From the IMG/VR virus record IMGVR_UViG_3300013947_000035, positions 1-64,000 of that record: a stretch of DNA of 64,000 nucleotides; one strand, 5' to 3'. The translations under genes were made by a program, and so were the position numbers. This stretch comes from a virus. Taxonomy: Duplodnaviria > Caudoviricetes. Shown one piece after another: positions 3,137 through 54,955 of this stretch. Each line of letters begins with the position of its first letter. Position 1 is the first letter of the stretch. Under the pieces are notes generated by a model that saw only the letters and a list, made by a program, of their open reading frames with translations, was not told the DNA's origin and ran no database searches.

Positions 3137-3602
3137 AAGACTTACCGCAACAACATCAGACGGCAGTGTCGGTATCAGACGCGGTTACACCAAAGACGAT
3201 TTGATTGCGCGTTTGGTCGAACTTGAAAACAAAATCGAACATAACAATATCGCTATTCTTCCATACAATGTAGGTAGCTTCGTTAATTACGGTGACGAAA
3301 ACGCGCTCATAAGTGGATATGTAATTCAAGGCGCACAATTATATATTCAACTCTGTGCGTATGAGAGACCAGATGAGAAATATTGGTATTTCTGGATAGA
3401 ACCCGACGACGAGAAATTGGTTGTCCCCGAACAAAAACCGTTTTCGCACATTCCAGAAGGCGTAGAAGTAGTGAAATTCGAATTCAAAGACGAAGACAAA
3501 AAAAAGTTCTTTTATCCTGACTTCGATTTCGATAACGATATCAAACCTGTAAAAGAACAGGATATAAAAATAGGATATTTTCGCAACGGAAAGGAGAAAT
3601 AG
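3120..3602 (+). CDS. hypothetical protein
   Basis: ATG 3120 overlaps upstream gene; tiles to RtcB. Confidence 0.7.
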   Translation: MNEKYERLTATTSDGSVGIRRGYTKDDLIARLVELENKIEHNNIAILPYNVGSFVNYGDENALISGYVIQGAQLYIQLCAYERPDEKYWYFWIEPDDEKLVVPEQKPFSHIPEGVEVVKFEFKDEDKKKFFYPDFDFDNDIKPVKEQDIKIGYFRNGKEK

Positions 3603-14842: not shown

Positions 14843-16525
14843 ATGACGATATTAGAATGGCTGCGCGCGCGCGTACGTAACGTAGCGGGTTCGGTCGTAA
14901 AAACGAAGCGACCCGACGATGAGCGAATGACGTTCATTAACGATAACGAAGCTATGGGGCGAATGAAGCTGAAAGAGTACGACGTGTGGTACGACGGCGA
15001 CGGCGACGAGTTATTGAACTTTTACACAAGGCAGAACTATATCGGCTTCAATTACGAACCGTTTTATGCCCGCAACAAGAAGAATTATTTTTGGGCGATA
15101 TCGAGTACAGAAGCGCAGATAAAGCGAACGCATAGCGGACAGCCGCGAAACATAGTCGATACGTTGGTGAACATAATGCCGTTTCCTTTGGTGTCGTGTT
15201 CGGAATCGGACAAGTTGAAAGCGGTGATAACCGAGAGCGGATTGGAACAAGTATATAAAGACGAACAGTTGCCGCTGACGTTGGTCGAGGGCTGGGGCTG
15301 TTGGAAGATAAATTGGGACAAAGACATAAGCGACTATCCGAGCGTCGAGTATGTATCGGCAGAGAACGTCGACTTCATATATAAGAACGGGAAAGTGATA
15401 GGGATTGTGTTCAAGAACTATTACACAAGCGAGAAGAAACGATACGTGCTGATGGAAACGAGGAGTATCGAATGGAAGCCGAAAGACGAAACTCTCACGC
15501 GCGCGCGTACGCATGCGTACAATATATATAATGGCGGGGGTGAAGGAGAGAGAGTGTTGGTAATCACGAACGAATTGTTCGAATTGCCTGCGAACATGTC
15601 AACGGACGATAATACGCCGCTGAAGAAAGTCGAGTTAGGAACTGTTTCAGCGCTGGCAGACGTCGAAGAAAGAATCGAAATCGGACCGTTTGATAAGTTG
15701 TTCGCCGTTCCTTGCATATTGTTAGGTAATACGAGCAAGCAGTGGGGTTATGGACGAAGCATATTCACAGGGAAAGTTGACTTGTTTGACGATTTGGACC
15801 AAGCGTTGTCACAGTCGTCGAATGCGGTAAGGTTGTCGACGCCGATAGAATACATAGACGAAGAATATCTTGACCGCGATAAGAACGGGTTGCCGAAGAA
15901 GCCACAATCATATGACAGAAAGTACGTTATGATGAAAGGACAGAGGAACGGAGACGGAACGACGACAGGACAGCCCGTACAAGTGACACAGCCGAGTGTA
16001 GATTTTTCTCGATATAGCGACCACGCGATACAGATATTGTTGCAGATACTGAACGGCATATTGTCACCCGCGACGTTGGGAATCGACATAGCAAAGAAAG
16101 ACAATGCCGCCGCCCAGCGTGAGAAAGAAAAGGTGACGATATTCACACGAAACGCGTTGATAAGCGGCGAAGAACGGATACTGCGTTCGCTTATGGAACA
16201 GTTGCTGATGGCGAAAGAGTTTATGGATACGGGAGCGGTAAGTGTTCATTCGTATGACATCTCGGTAAAGTTCAACGAGTTTGCGGACGACAGCTTCGAG
16301 AACAAGTTGGAAGCGTTGGGGAAAGCATACGATATGGAAGAAATATCGACGGATATGTATCTGAACAAGTTGTATGGCGACACATTGAGCGACGAAGAAC
16401 GGGCGGCGGAAAAAGAGTTTTTGGAATCGGCTCGTCAAGCGCGAACGGAAGCGTACTCGAACGCAGACGGCGGCGGGGCGAATACACAAGGGATGATAGA
16501 CAACATCTTCGACAGAAAGAGGTGA
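14843..16525 (+). CDS. portal protein (SPP1/A118-like)
   Basis: 560 aa; GWGCWKINWD, YGRSIF, LDQALSQ, LSPATLGID patterns. Confidence 0.85.
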   Translation: MTILEWLRARVRNVAGSVVKTKRPDDERMTFINDNEAMGRMKLKEYDVWYDGDGDELLNFYTRQNYIGFNYEPFYARNKKNYFWAISSTEAQIKRTHSGQPRNIVDTLVNIMPFPLVSCSESDKLKAVITESGLEQVYKDEQLPLTLVEGWGCWKINWDKDISDYPSVEYVSAENVDFIYKNGKVIGIVFKNYYTSEKKRYVLMETRSIEWKPKDETLTRARTHAYNIYNGGGEGERVLVITNELFELPANMSTDDNTPLKKVELGTVSALADVEERIEIGPFDKLFAVPCILLGNTSKQWGYGRSIFTGKVDLFDDLDQALSQSSNAVRLSTPIEYIDEEYLDRDKNGLPKKPQSYDRKYVMMKGQRNGDGTTTGQPVQVTQPSVDFSRYSDHAIQILLQILNGILSPATLGIDIAKKDNAAAQREKEKVTIFTRNALISGEERILRSLMEQLLMAKEFMDTGAVSVHSYDISVKFNEFADDSFENKLEALGKAYDMEEISTDMYLNKLYGDTLSDEERAAEKEFLESARQARTEAYSNADGGGANTQGMIDNIFDRKR

Positions 16526-16649
16526 AAAGAAAGGCGAAAAAGAAAAGGTTGCGCTTGCAACCTTTTTCTTTTGCCGTCTTTCCTTTTACCATATTCATTA
16601 CCGTGCTGGGGTTCGGGTCGGATAGGGAGTACCGTGCTAATGCGGGGAT

Positions 16650-16870: not shown

Positions 16871-17130
16871 ATAATTATAGCATAAACGGCGGCGGCTGTA
16901 AAGGGGGTTAGAGCAAAAATTTACGTCTACAAAATATCTACAAATGTATATTTATGCAGTATTTATGTATAATTATACATTAAGTACCGTGCCATATTCA
17001 CCCCTATACCGTGCTCGAATATATACCCGAAAAGGCGCGATTCCGATACCGTGCTAACATCATAAAAGAAAACAGCCGCCCTCGTGGACGACCGTTTTCC
17101 CTTTTAGGAGATATGCCAATGAATGAGCAA

Positions 17131-53311: not shown

Positions 53312-53924
53312 AATCGTTATAAAGCACGCCCTGCACTGGTTATCGGTGCAGGGTAAACTTTATTTGCGAGGGATTCCACAATTATTCTTGGTAACAATAT
53401 TGTTGATTCCTGCCGCATATTTTACAGGCAAATATATCGAAGCAATTTTCCAAATTATTGCGTTGTTTGCGCTTCGGTATAAATTCCCTAAAACTTATCA
53501 CGCCGATACGACTATGAAATGTACTTTTGTGACGTTAAGTATCGGGTATCTTGCAATTCCGAGAGTTTTGCCTACGAACGTTGCTTTGTTTAGCGCGATA
53601 TTTGTCAGTTTCGTTATCGCATTTCTCTCGTGGTTGGCACAAGAATTTATCGACCGAAAGAAACGCATAGCCGAACTCGAAGCCGCGCCTGTTTCCGAGC
53701 CATTATCGTTCACAACTTGTTCGCGAGAAGAATTCGATATGTTGTGTGTAAATAACGGAATCAAGTCAAGCCGCATAGAATATGTTTGGGATTTACTTCG
53801 AGGCAAATTATCAACATCTGAAATGATGGACAAATATTGCGTAGCCGAAAAAACAATTAGTCAAGACCGTTGGCGATACAGAAAAAGATTTTCTAACCCT
53901 ATTGACAACGGCGAATTGAAATGA
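53274..53924 (+). CDS. AgrB-like membrane peptidase fused to a C-terminal HTH
   Basis: LRYKFPKTYHADTTMKC (His...Cys+7) within a 4-TM region; C-terminal STSEMMDKYCVAEKTISQDRWRYRKRF. Confidence 0.7.
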   Translation: MKKCALKLLTRSKIVIKHALHWLSVQGKLYLRGIPQLFLVTILLIPAAYFTGKYIEAIFQIIALFALRYKFPKTYHADTTMKCTFVTLSIGYLAIPRVLPTNVALFSAIFVSFVIAFLSWLAQEFIDRKKRIAELEAAPVSEPLSFTTCSREEFDMLCVNNGIKSSRIEYVWDLLRGKLSTSEMMDKYCVAEKTISQDRWRYRKRFSNPIDNGELK

Positions 53925-53930
53925 TATTAT
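53902..53930 (+). promoter_or_regulatory. promoter of the RNA island
   Basis: TTGACA-N17-TATTAT with TG extension. Confidence 0.8.
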
Positions 53931-54008
53931 AAACGTGTCGAAAGCGCAATACGAGGTCTTCTAAAAGTTCTCCCCAGCCTCGTTCGACGCAAAAAAAATT
54001 GCGCGTAT

Positions 54009-54064
54009 CGGCGACTCGCATCTTGTAGTGCGAATTGTAGGGGCAGTACCTACGTTGCCGACCA
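54009..54064 (+). ncRNA. 56-nt D-armless tRNA-like RNA
   Basis: CGGCGAC/GTTGCCG acceptor stem plus ACCA, TCGCA/TGCGA arm, GTAGG-GGCAGTA-CCTAC T-arm. Confidence 0.65.
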
Positions 54065-54231
54065 GTAACCCTGCGGGTAGTGCGCATACCCGTTGTCCGA
54101 AGCTATTGGCGGATAGAGTTTAATATGGCATCGTGTTCGCGACCGATGCTATGACCACGCAAGCAGTTTTGTACTATGCACTATATGTAACATAGCCTGA
54201 ACGGTTCTCGACAAAAAGTAAGCTTGCATTT

Positions 54232-54312
54232 GGGGTTGAGAATGGTTTCGATTGCACATAAAGCCGAAGCGCACTGTGCAAGAAACGAGTTCGATTCTCG
54301 TCAACTCCACCA
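54232..54312 (+). ncRNA. 81-nt tmRNA-like RNA: tRNA-like domain only, no tag ORF
   Basis: GGGGTTG/CAACTCC acceptor stem with G3-U70, GGTTTCGA D-loop, TTGCACA/TGTGCAA helix, ACGAG-TTCGATT-CTCGT T-arm, ACCA. Confidence 0.8.
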
Positions 54313-54502
54313 GCGGGTTTTTCACTGTTTCCAAGCCGTCAAAAAAACAGCGCGGGGCGTATTGATGTTTGCGCTCTGTAAAATAACATCATCGCACTTT
54401 GTCCGTTTCGGCGAATAAATGTGATAACGGAACGAAGCGCGAGGGGCGACGATAGCCCTGCAGTATCGCGTATAGAAAGGTGACACGCTATTCCTTTCAA
54501 AT

Positions 54503-54578
54503 GCAGGTATGGCGCAATCGGCAGCGCAACTGATTTGTAATCAGTCGGTTGTCTGTTCGAGTCAGACTTCCAGCACCA
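54503..54578 (+). tRNA. tRNA-Thr(UGU), two acceptor-stem mismatches
   Basis: GCGC D-stem, ACTGA-TTTGTAA-TCAGT anticodon arm, GTCTG-TTCGAGT-CAGAC T-arm, CCA. Confidence 0.85.
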
Positions 54579-54810
54579 CCACTTTCACAATTCGAGAGAG
54601 CCGACTGTTTTTCGAAAAATTTTGGTCGATTTTCTCATTTCTATTGATTTATTTATGAATTTGTGTTAATATAAGTTTGTGTGAAGTGCTTATCAAGTAT
54701 AAACCGTGCCGCCATTGCAGTGGCGACCAAAACACACTGTACTATGCACTATATGGGAGCATAGCCGAACAGACTGCACCTTGCGCTAAATATTAGTGAA
54801 GGTCAAGATA

Positions 54811-54845
54811 AACCTGACACTATATGTGTCGGGTTTTTCTTTTTT
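54811..54845 (+). terminator. intrinsic terminator ending the RNA island
   Basis: AACCTGACAC/GTGTCGGGTT hairpin plus T-tract. Confidence 0.75.
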
Positions 54846-54955
54846 TATACTTTTTGTAGATTATTTTTGCCGTTTGTAGACCTTTTGTAGGTAAACATTC
54901 GGCATTTTTTTCTTTTATCATCAAATTAGCAAAAAACGATAAGGCGGTGTGCTTT

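Follow-up and report, generated by a model that had tools for sequence, protein, structure and literature searches.

Phages are known to carry tRNAs. A phage tmRNA reduced to its tRNA-like part was known before from one phage, DS6A. [quoted passage not shown] Such a molecule is stated to inhibit tmRNA strongly, perhaps via titration of SmpB (PMC4131195; PMC11915505). DS6A is a mycobacteriophage and belongs to another host group, whereas our locus comes from a gut phage. The mini-tmRNA of this gut phage also differs in its setting, a non-coding array in which it is one of several cassettes that can replace each other. Two homologous types exist: the T-loop is canonical in the first and mostly GGCRGUA-like in the second. 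Phages of 125–139 kb share this RNA.

Other parts of the locus resemble further small RNAs. RNAC and RNAD of phage T4 are about 120–140 nt long. These species 1 and 2 RNAs are small, stable RNAs beside tRNA genes, and their role is unknown (PMC3014915). Like the RNAs of our locus they adjoin phage tRNA genes, but T4's RNAs are larger, and the likeness is again one of description. In Lak megaphages tRNA genes contain introns, one of which “may itself encode a tRNA” (Devoto et al. 2019, PMC6784885). As described, these introns are small tRNA-shaped units comparable with the 56-nt RNA of our locus, which, however, lies outside any tRNA gene. Coliphage N4 carries an element (NC_008720, 32869–32934) that adjoins tRNA-Asn, tRNA-Thr(UGU) and tRNA-Pro. 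It has a 7-bp acceptor, a 5-bp T-arm, ACCA and a shortened core, as does the 56-nt RNA. The N4 element differs in its canonical UUCGAGU T-loop and its core of 31 nt instead of 21 nt, and the two have no sequence similarity.

In plant mitochondria, acceptor-stem-like stem-loops have been proposed as processing signals (Forner et al. 2007, PMC1920247). These stem-loops and the t-elements, tRNA- or acceptor-like structures that end where neighbouring RNAs end, are the best analogy for the short ACCA hairpins of our locus. They flank mRNAs, whereas our locus is without ORFs. Finally, the two-piece tmRNA of alphaproteobacteria (RF01849) has the same GGCRGUA T-loop closed by G-C pairs that we find in phage RNAs. 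The phage RNAs, in contrast, are one-piece and the resemblance is confined to the T-arm; the host of our phage is probably not an alphaproteobacterium.

An array of reduced tRNA-like units

The window that we analysed comprises 64,000 nt of an uncultured 78-kb gut phage (IMG/VR record IMGVR_UViG_3300013947_000035); all features described below lie on its plus strand. Between a regulatory gene on one side and the next operon on the other lies a promoter-driven island of 0.92 kb without protein genes. It is crowded with reduced tRNA-like units: a TLD-only tmRNA, a 56-nt “top-half” tRNA, a weakened tRNA-Thr and two small hairpins. All five A-CCA stems reported in the initial annotation are present, with ends at 54064, 54157, 54312, 54578 and 54729.

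The consensus promoter that had been noticed upstream of the island is also there. P1 (53902–53930; TTGACA, 17-nt spacer, TATTAT and a TG extension) matches at 11 of 12 positions and is kept in relatives (L002, L003, L131 and L132–L135). It is followed by a 5' leader (53935–54008) that folds in context into a hairpin (ACGAGG/CCUCGU within GUCGAA/UUCGAC, then an A-run and UUGCGC) and is about 86% identical to the islands of the L002 and L003 type. At the other end a shared tail with an intrinsic terminator (54796–54846; stem 54810–54836, then a U-run) is 90–93% identical in L002, L003 and L133. The suggestion that the island produces a polycistronic RNA is borne out in so far as the array is non-coding, lies on one strand and runs from promoter to terminator. 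A candidate second promoter, P2 (54644–54672; TTGATT, 17-nt spacer, TAATAT and a TG extension), precedes the last hairpin, however, and argues against one simple polycistron. P2 was read from the sequence and scores under the cut-off of our promoter scan (9 of 12 matches). In the nearest strain its -35 box is TTGACT, its -10 box is the same and an overlapping site on the minus strand is degraded.

The sole call by ARAGORN is tRNA-Thr(UGU) at 54503–54578. The Rfam covariance models proposed as a check match this tRNA (60.3 bits) and the tmRNA at 54232–54312 (56.3 bits), but leave the 56-nt RNA and the two hairpins, the minihelix and the microhelix, unmatched at E values up to 10. A distant BLAST search of the island against cultured phages returned matches to tRNA-Thr only. 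The modules persist in a joint fold of 300 nt. Of the 350 ACCA sites on the two strands of the window, 60 terminate a stem of 5 bp or more, a density of about 0.47 per kb and strand. For the island one would expect 0.43 such stems; it contains four plus the tRNA, about 10 times as many as expected by chance, and they are among the window's most stable per nucleotide. We regard the support as solid for the mini-tmRNA, the 56-nt RNA and tRNA-Thr, and as weak for the 34-nt minihelix and the microhelix.

In relatives the flanks of the island are kept and the sets of modules at the same site differ. Islands of the L002 type hold the 56-nt RNA, a mini-tmRNA of type B and mini C, which has no encoded CCA; these three units follow one another directly, separated by just 2–4 nt. 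The islands of L003 and L133 hold the same three units and in addition a leader with tRNA-Thr. Mini-tmRNA A is found in L004, tRNA-Asn in L137, and small RNAs only in L005, L006 and L007. Gut phages of 125–139 kb, which have up to 22 tRNAs, carry these modules too, within their tRNA arrays. Conservation of the stems in related phages, on which the initial annotation had staked its interpretation, holds for three of the five units; the two short hairpins are without comparative support as tRNA mimics. Sequence comparison indicates that most units of the island are real, conserved RNA genes exchanged between gut phages.

The explanation that we favour, with a probability of about one half, is that the island is a cargo slot for tRNA-derived RNA genes that host enzymes would release, with the mini-tmRNA likely soaking up SmpB. 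Its basis is observed: sequences, folds, conservation, covariation and the sharing of modules. The modules would come from a common stock that gut phages, those with large tRNA arrays included, share through recombination. Transcription would start at P1 and probably also at P2. The tRNA-like units would then be released by the tRNA maturation of the host, with RNase P generating the 5' ends and the 3' ends being trimmed back as far as the encoded CCA. Since the island is built like a tRNA operon, such processing is the natural expectation. That the island is transcribed and processed, that SmpB is titrated and that any of the RNAs has an effect in the cell is what we infer.

A tmRNA without a tag template

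The mini-tmRNA of the window (type A, 54232–54312) is 81 nt long. It matches positions 1–374 of the tmRNA model RF00023 with 56.3 bits (gathering score 47), and 308 internal positions of the model are replaced by 14 nt. The diagnostic parts of a tmRNA TLD are present: a D-loop analogue (GG..UUCGA; here AGAAUGGUUUCGA), a helix 2a of 7 bp with a conserved cap, and a canonical T-arm. The acceptor stem is GGGGUUG/CAACUCC with G3:U70, followed by A73 and ACCA. We found no mRNA-like domain, resume codon, tag reading frame or pseudoknots. Because only 14–16 nt cap helix 2, the mini-tmRNA is a TLD-only form and not a tagging tmRNA.

Homologues are found in L002, L003, L004, L133, L164, L165 and L169. 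Among the seven distinct sequences, 12 of 21 pairs show compensatory changes, 93.8% of the cells are paired, and none of 500 shuffles reached the score of the alignment. G3:U70 is invariant in all seven. Types A and B align without gaps and their loops co-vary: the D-loop AAUGG occurs with the T-loop UUCGAUU, and the D-loop AAAAG mostly with GGCRGUA-type T-loops (AGCAUUA in L002). As judged from this alignment, the structure of the family is under strong purifying selection, which extends to loops that are dispensable for processing. In L167 the mini-tmRNA is a chimera; its acceptor is broken and it lacks the CCA.

In this phage the mini-tmRNA would be the functional core of the island. It appears to retain all that is needed for alanylation (G3:U70, A73 and CCA) and for SmpB binding, and to lack the template for a tag. 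By analogy with what has been proposed for DS6A, it probably titrates SmpB. It could possibly also enter stalled ribosomes without offering a resume codon. In consequence, trans-translation of the host would be blocked or diverted. The phage encodes neither SmpB nor a CCA-adding enzyme. Titration of SmpB by a TLD-only tmRNA is, by analogy, the sole decoy function with precedent, and it was absent from the initial annotation. Several points speak against the cargo-slot explanation. Decoys would compete with a very large pool of host tRNAs, and the titration of SmpB is an analogy that was borrowed from a different system and from what two papers state. The modest structural support for the 56-nt RNA, the decayed copies in L131 and L167, the damaged acceptor stem of tRNA-Thr and the lineage-specific occurrence of the two short hairpins weigh against it as well.

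tRNA-Thr, the short hairpins and the RNAs between them

The one real tRNA of the island, tRNA-Thr(UGU) at 54503–54578, is a cloverleaf with a UGU anticodon called by two programs (ARAGORN, and Rfam with 60.3 bits). It has A73 and an encoded CCACCA. Its acceptor stem is not fully paired (A3xA70 and U6xU67); in L003 and L133 the acceptor stem of tRNA-Thr is perfect, with covarying pairs, and is followed by U73. Homology to the relatives stops at 54563–54566, within the 3' strand of the T-arm. A structured leader (54345–54502) travels with this cassette; its consensus fold includes three compensatory pairs and it is 89–96% identical in L003 and L133.

The initial annotation saw in the five units decoys that could titrate anticodon nucleases, tRNA-modifying toxins, synthetases or RelA, and that could protect against PrrC-, RelE- or PARIS-type defences. 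That phages carry tRNAs and that tRNA-Thr(UGU) or tRNA-Asn(GUU) occupy this slot in relatives is in line with such a role. Some toxins modify the CCA end of tRNAs, and by analogy it is conceivable that an acceptor helix with a CCA end keeps enzymes with activity on tRNA 3' ends engaged. Nevertheless, we consider this explanation very unlikely. Four of the five units are without an anticodon stem-loop. An RNA without this loop cannot be a substrate or decoy of an anticodon nuclease (PrrC, RloC or PARIS-type), nor can it enter the A site in a codon-dependent manner for RelA. Hence, both targets fall away for all units other than tRNA-Thr. The sole recognisable synthetase identity set is that for AlaRS, the G3:U70 of the mini-tmRNA. 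The pair G5.U68 of the 56-nt RNA is A-U in its other allele, and the only real tRNA has a weakened acceptor stem.

The two short hairpins are a different matter. The acceptor/T-type minihelix (54124–54157, 34 nt; fold -14.0, z = -3.4) ends in ACCA. Its 7-bp acceptor and 4-bp T-stem give 11 pairs with one bulged U, where 12 stacked pairs are standard. Its loop, UUCGCGA, has C in place of A58 (the standard being U54, U55, C56, R57, A58). The minihelix is identical in the nearest strain, a comparison that is uninformative there, and has no homologue in relatives or IMG/VR apart from chance matches. The microhelix (54710–54729) is a 20-nt hairpin, CGCCAU-UGCA-GUGGCG followed by ACCA (fold -8.3, z = -2.7), that lies about 30 nt downstream of the candidate P2. 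In the nearest strain (runs X1–X3, from one study) its ACCA is ACCC (54729 A>C), no change is listed within the hairpin and the flanks vary; elsewhere we found no homologue. Exact-core scans of IMG/VR for the minihelix and the microhelix returned unrelated coding DNA only, and both hairpins appear to be lineage-specific.

Each of these hairpins stands 8–12 nt before a copy of a module with a CUAUAUG loop. Copy 1 (54170–54203; stem CUAUG/CAUAG, 54174–54195) and copy 2 (54738–54766; stem CUAUGC/GCAUAG, 54742–54764) have in common an exact repeat of 18 nt, TGTACTATGCACTATATG (54738–54755 in copy 2), which occurs twice in the whole window. Copy 2 is 100% identical over 29 nt to L169, where the module lies 4 nt downstream of the mini-tmRNA, and over 26 nt to L137, where it lies about 10 nt past the -10 box of a promoter. 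We ruled out that the repeat is a T7-like phage promoter, since it has two copies only and is part of a hairpin module that in L137 follows the -10 box. In three contexts an ACCA-ended stem stands 4–12 nt before the module. The two short hairpins are probably not tRNA mimics; by analogy with plant t-elements, they most likely mark the cut site at the 5' end of a CUAUAUG-loop RNA.

One could extend this argument to the entire island. All units would then be pure punctuation, t-element-like signals at which RNase P and RNase Z cut to free the RNAs between them: the CUAUAUG-loop RNA, the leader (145 nt) and the tail RNA. These RNAs are themselves conserved and structured, ACCA stems lie directly 5' of the CUAUAUG module in the three contexts, and t-elements and acceptor-like stem-loops are proposed to act in this way in plant mitochondria (PMC1920247). 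However, the units of the L002 type are 2–4 nt apart, which leaves nothing to punctuate. Furthermore, G3:U70, the D-loop analogue and the conserved apical loop of the mini-tmRNA exceed what a cleavage signal needs. It is therefore quite unlikely that punctuation explains the island as a whole, and a cargo slot remains our preferred explanation.

The 56-nt RNA and its T-arm

The D-armless tRNA-like RNA at 54009–54064 is 56 nt long (fold -23.8 kcal/mol, z = -3.1). It consists of a 7-bp acceptor (CGGCGAC/GUUGCCG), an adjacent side hairpin (a 6-nt loop on 6 bp; alternatively, an 8-nt loop on 5 bp), an AUU linker, a T-arm with a 5-bp stem (GUAGG-GGCAGUA-CCUAC), A73 and CCA. Acceptor and T-stem are those of a tRNA (RF00005), with the T-loop GGCAGUA instead of UUCRANY. 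There is no D-arm, no anticodon arm (5-bp stem, 7-nt loop, U33) and no ARAGORN call. Because this RNA shows an acceptor/T-arm helix only, a target must read that end of a tRNA and not the anticodon. A second allele is found in L002, L003, L132–L135 and run X7, with three changes in stems, all of which keep the pairing. There are two alleles only and no double compensatory change, and the comparison lends the structure modest support.

Homology to relatives stops 4 nt past the CCA of this RNA, which marks the boundary of the cassette. The spacer that follows (54065–54123) folds into two hairpins. Positions 54070–54103 may be a decayed duplicate of the 56-nt RNA's 3' half that has lost the T-arm, a weak case with a local alignment score of 24.5 compared to 16.8 ± 3.6 for shuffles (reached by 21 of 500). 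In L131 there is a decayed 56-nt copy without inner hairpin, T-arm and CCA. We rejected the idea that the 56-nt RNA sits inside a degenerate host tRNA, as ARAGORN with introns allowed found no enclosing tRNA in the window, L002 or L003. A scan for its linker and T-arm returned known relatives only.

The initial annotation took the GGCAGTA T-loop for a signature of alphaproteobacterial tmRNAs, and it was right to do so: the T-arm is CCGGG-GGCgGUA-CCCGG in the Rfam alpha_tmRNA consensus and GUGGG-GGCAGUA-CCCAC in a tmRNA of Pelagibacteraceae. The 17-nt T-arm of the 56-nt RNA has identical copies in at least 119 viral contigs, compared to 24 in 596 Gb of cellular genomes. In the viral contigs it is the T-arm of phage tRNAs missed by ARAGORN and Rfam. 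A full-text literature search on GGCRGUA/GGCAGUA yielded no relevant paper, and a literature search on non-canonical elbows of phage tRNAs yielded none.

The build of the 56-nt RNA recurs as inserts in the anticodon loops of tRNAs in L008, L086, L088 and L092. Common to all are a 7-bp acceptor, a side hairpin, a short linker, a T-arm of the form NNNGG-GGCAG(U/C)A-CCNNN, A73 and CCA. The homologous tRNA-Leu(UAA) of L008 and L086 hold different minis at one site, with identical T-arms and unrelated acceptor stems. The 56-nt RNA may hence belong, as a gene that stands alone, to a family of “top-half” tRNA mimics that end in CCA and have a T-arm of the alpha-tmRNA type.

These inserts also suggest another explanation, namely that the units are selfish or decaying tRNA-derived cassettes, whose tRNA shape is kept only so that the host removes them without harm and which bring no gain to the phage. 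The 56-nt RNA would then represent a copy of an insert that has become “homeless”, and recombination in a hot spot for tRNA arrays would have left behind the small hairpins and the mismatched tRNA-Thr. Besides the shared build in unrelated phage tRNAs and the exchange of minis within tRNA-Leu(UAA), this could account for the decayed copies in L131, L167 and possibly at 54070–54103, for the recombination junction within a tRNA-Thr that has two acceptor mismatches, and for the microhelix CCA that was not retained. The decayed copies in L131 and L167 indeed mean that not every cassette is maintained. Yet we find the explanation unlikely for the island as a whole. The structure of the mini-tmRNA and its processing-dispensable loops appear to be under strong purifying selection, and a near-consensus promoter is conserved across relatives. 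The CCA is dispensable for excision, yet both solid minis of the window retain it, as do the inserts, with mini C as the exception.

The T-arms may tell us something more general. It is possible, and we offer this tentatively, that the GGCRGUA T-arm and the AAG-type D-loop define a phage-borne alternative tRNA “elbow” shared by three kinds of RNA. These may be full-length tRNAs that together serve many amino acids (at least 119 viral contigs), TLD-only tmRNAs, and CCA-ended top-half minis, the latter both as free genes and as inserts in tRNA anticodon loops. If this were true, phages would keep parallel translation RNAs whose elbow either escapes some host factor or is recognised by a factor of the phage. 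Within such a system, the minis could represent a mobile element or an effector that is set free.

What is new compared to DS6A is that reduced translation RNAs are cassettes exchanged between unrelated gut phages and kept by selection. With its 81 nt, the mini-tmRNA offers a clean candidate for a natural inhibitor of ribosome rescue that can be tested directly. Through the 56-nt RNA, a gene that stands by itself is connected with the puzzling tRNA-shaped inserts of phage tRNAs. The T-arm that they share reveals many phage tRNA genes missed by standard tRNA finders, and these missed genes affect tRNA counts and arguments about codon usage in viral metagenomics.

Anatomy of the island

The 78-kb IMG/VR virus record that contains the window is rated complete by CheckV. 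It has no credible ORF between 53.9 and 54.85 kb, and all tRNA-like features in this island lie on the plus strand. The promoter that the initial annotation placed ahead of the island is borne out by a near-consensus sigma-70 match (P1, 53902-53930); an intrinsic terminator follows at 54810-54836. ARAGORN calls a single tRNA in the window, the tRNA-Thr(UGU) of 54503-54578, which is also the sole tRNA found by Rfam across the entire record. Rfam further reports a tmRNA match at 54232-54312 (56.3 bits, gathering score 47), with 14 nt in place of 308 internal model positions. The phage encodes neither SmpB nor a CCA-adding enzyme.

Five stems, each followed by A-CCA, had been described here from sequence, and all five are present. 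For a chance estimate, we folded the bases preceding each ACCA of the window, with a stem cut-off of at least 5 bp. Such a stem is closed by 60 of the 350 sites, a density of about 0.47 per kb on each strand. Within the 0.92-kb island there are four stem-closing sites plus the tRNA, an excess over the 0.43 expected. Its ACCA-closed stems rank among the most stable per nucleotide, and the modules persist when 300 nt are folded jointly. Related phages conserve the stems of the mini-tmRNA, the 56-nt RNA and tRNA-Thr, not that of the minihelix.

The mini-tmRNA is an 81-nt form consisting of the tRNA-like domain (TLD) only. Its types A and B align without a gap across the full 81 nt. Covariation was scored on a structure that we specified, with 500 shuffles and slid structures as controls. 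In the alignment 93.8% of cells are paired, and compensatory changes occur at 12 of the 21 pairs; the covariation score is reached by none of the 500 shuffles, and pairing drops to 36-53% when the structure is slid. G3:U70 is invariant across the family, and conservation is higher in the helix 2 cap (UAAAsCCrAAGCGsAC) than in the stems. Type A combines a D-loop analogue AAUGG with the T-loop UUCGAUU; type B has AAAAG and a T-loop GGCGGUA, GGCAGUA, GGCAGCA or AGCAUUA. One copy, that of L167, is a chimera whose acceptor is broken and whose CCA is missing. The 56-nt RNA has only two alleles. Pairing is kept at all three stem differences (G.U to A-U, C-G to U.G, A-U to G.U), and the T-loop, GGCAGUA in the window, reads GGCAGUG in the other allele. 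Taken alone, this comparison offers modest support for the structure.

In two related contigs (L003, L133) tRNA-Thr has perfect, covarying acceptor stems and U73. The copy in the window has A3xA70 and U6xU67 mismatches, A73 and an encoded CCACCA, and its homology to relatives breaks off within the 3' strand of the T-arm. This suggests a recombination junction at which its 3' acceptor strand was replaced. The leader of this tRNA (54345-54502; 145 nt) travels with the tRNA-Thr cassette, is 89-96% conserved and has a four-hairpin fold in which three pairs are compensatory; it may act as a platform for processing or be a further small RNA. The nearest strain is identical to the window over 53900-54491 and carries (runs X2, X3) a 494-nt insertion at 54491/54498, directly 5' of tRNA-Thr.

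The minihelix (54124-54157; 11 pairs, one bulge, loop UUCGCGA) closely resembles a textbook acceptor/T minihelix, and no homologue was found in the relatives and IMG/VR sequences searched. The microhelix (54710-54729) lies about 30 nt downstream of a candidate second promoter (P2, 54644-54672). Three runs from one study show the nearest strain to have an improved -35 box in P2 and a degraded overlapping minus-strand site; the hairpin has no listed change, its flanks vary and ACCA becomes ACCC. Both hairpins stand 8-12 nt 5' of a copy of the CUAUAUG-loop module. It is the ACCA of a mini-tmRNA that lies 4 nt ahead of this module in L169, and in L137 the module begins about 10 nt past a promoter -10 box. 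We read the two hairpins from these positions as marks that would set the 5' end of a CUAUAUG-loop RNA. Acceptor-stem-like stem-loops in plant mitochondria (PMC1920247) are an analogue.

The CUAUAUG hairpins form a family in which stems differ and covary around a constant loop core. They occur in island-tail RNAs and in large-phage tRNA arrays (54174-54195 and 54742-54764 in the window; L137:2140-2200; L002:2835-2860; L004:3628-3655; L169 near 2890-2920).

Some further features were noted. Paired TTGTAGA motifs (54854-54880), which look like an operator, lie 3' of the island terminator, as do versions of the motif (e.g., TGTAGAT) in all relatives. A second pair is found on the minus strand near 16.9 kb (16926-16943), and the loop of the 56-nt RNA includes CUUGUAG; genome-wide, TTGTAGA is not enriched (9 found, 7.8 expected). 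A very stable 71-nt stem at 16521-16591 (-29.8 kcal/mol) ends exactly ahead of an ACCA. It overlaps the last few bases of a 560-aa ORF, extends beyond the ORF end and is probably a terminator-like hairpin.

A slot with exchangeable content

Relatives were located via the flanking genes, which yielded seven IMG/VR relatives and eight metagenome contigs. Flanks, promoter and terminator-bearing tail are kept, and the content in between varies. Four relatives (L002, L132, L134, L135) carry the 56-nt RNA, 4 nt, a type B mini-tmRNA, 2 nt and mini C, a tRNA-like unit without CCA; L003, L133 and run X7 add the structured 145-nt leader and tRNA-Thr to this set. L004 has a type A mini-tmRNA 93% identical to that in the window, and L137 two CUAUAUG-loop hairpins and tRNA-Asn(GUU). 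Only small terminator-ended RNAs fill the slot in L005, L006, L138 and L007, and L131 has a decayed hairpin without CCA at the place expected for the 56-nt RNA. The window and the L002 type are homologous up to a point 4 nt past the CCA of the 56-nt RNA, where the homology ends.

Searching with a pattern built on the conserved mini-tmRNA cap brought up the same modules in 125-139-kb phages that have as many as 22 tRNAs. Among these modules are the mini-tmRNA itself, mini C, CUAUAUG hairpins and the leader of tRNA-Thr, and the L131 phage has the same modules at a second locus too. Judged by this recurrence, we take the island to be a small outpost of a module pool common to gut-phage tRNA arrays.

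Mini C (L002:2663-2712, L003:3361-3412, L165:9649-9700) is a second D-armless unit, with an 8-bp acceptor, a 5-bp hairpin, a canonical T-arm (GAGG-UUCGACU-CCUC) and no encoded CCA. Among its three alleles one acceptor pair is A-U, G.U or G-C. Upstream of the mini-tmRNA in L004 lies a cloverleaf-like four-way junction without CCA (3356-3439, z -2.1), with an acceptor-like stem (ACGACGU/ACGUCGU) and three hairpins; ARAGORN makes no call on it. The terminator-ended tail RNA of L005 (1185-1215), L006, L007, L137 and L138 contains ACCUCCUUA, which we take to be identical to the 3' end of 16S rRNA (anti-Shine-Dalgarno region), whereas the tail of the island in the window has CACCUU only.

The alpha-type T-arm in phage tRNAs

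The initial annotation gave GGCRGUA as the T-loop signature of alphaproteobacterial tmRNAs. It indeed matches the T-arm of the Rfam alpha_tmRNA consensus (CCGGG-GGCgGUA-CCCGG) and of one Pelagibacteraceae tmRNA (GUGGG-GGCAGUA-CCCAC). The 17-nt T-arm GTAGGGGCAGTACCTAC has at least 119 exact matches in viral contigs and only 24 in 596 Gb of bacterial and archaeal sequence, several of these in tRNA-like contexts on MAG contigs. Nearly all of the viral matches listed form the T-arm of a cloverleaf of 69-72 nt. These GUAGG-GGCAGUA-CCUAC cloverleaves (L009-L126, e.g., L027:4324-4395, minus strand) are located in tRNA arrays, have AAG in place of GG in the D-loop, and have anticodons that include those for Asn, Gln, Lys, Met, Trp, Ile, Val and Phe. 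In the loci checked, they escape both ARAGORN and the Rfam tRNA model (E up to 1). The only GenBank phage with a similar sequence, Microcystis phage Mwe-JY26, carries it at an unannotated locus. Our literature search found no description of phage tRNAs with an AAG D-loop and alpha-type T-arm, which does not prove that there is none.

Viral contigs with tRNA arrays also carry extra RNA genes (L013:976-1255, L075:1002-1253, L068:800-836, L070:2097-2144): bacterial class A RNase P RNA (170.9 bits), abiF RNA motifs and cyanobacterial permuted tmRNA (115.2 bits).

A descriptor of the 56-nt type (7-bp acceptor, short core with a hairpin, 5-bp T-stem with 7-nt loop, NCCA) matched units inside the anticodon loops of tRNA genes in unrelated gut phages. 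With introns allowed, ARAGORN places a 52-nt insert in tRNA-Leu(UAA) of L008 (2870-3008), inserts of 47, 49, 56 and 76 nt in L086 (1866-1998; 877-1029) and L088 (5640-5771; 6489-6611), and one of 64 nt in L092. Every T-loop is GGCAG(U/C/G)A, and all inserts end in ACCA except the 76-nt one (GGCCA). The tRNA-Leu(UAA) genes of L008 and L086 are homologous and hold different inserts at the same site, with the T-arm alone in common; the acceptor stems are unrelated, each fully paired. "Enigmatic" conserved introns have been described in Lak megaphage tRNAs, and one of these introns may encode a tRNA of its own (Devoto et al.; PMC6784885). The 56-nt RNA of the window is a free-standing unit.

Possible roles and known systems

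Our observations on the island comprise sequence, folds, conservation, covariation and module sharing. In the mechanism we propose, transcription would initiate at P1 and P2, and host RNase P together with 3' trimming to the encoded CCA would release the units. The mini-tmRNA would bind SmpB and be alanylated; because it has no resume codon, host trans-translation would be blocked or diverted. The inhibition step is argued by analogy with mycobacteriophage DS6A, and from the statement that a similar molecule inhibits tmRNA strongly, perhaps via SmpB titration (PMC4131195; PMC11915505). The 56-nt RNA displays only its acceptor/T-arm face, so its target, if any, would have to read that end; it may just as well be a selfish element whose shape is maintained to allow its excision.

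The initial annotation had also suggested decoys for anticodon nucleases and titration of RelA. The minis have no anticodon loops. They are therefore unable to replace the substrates of anticodon nucleases, and codon-dependent A-site binding, the route to RelA, is impossible for them.

Parts of this picture are familiar. tRNA-like small RNAs in phage tRNA regions have long been known from T4, whose RNAC and RNAD have no assigned role (PMC3014915). In coliphage N4, a reduced tRNA-like unit adjoins Asn, Thr and Pro tRNAs and ends in ACCA. The mini-tmRNA joins the TLD-only tmRNA of DS6A, a kind already known and very rare. New here are the cassette behaviour of the slot, the two mini-tmRNA types with their coupled D-loop and T-loop changes, the link of a free-standing mini, the 56-nt RNA, to anticodon-loop inserts, and the phage-wide alpha-type T-arm.
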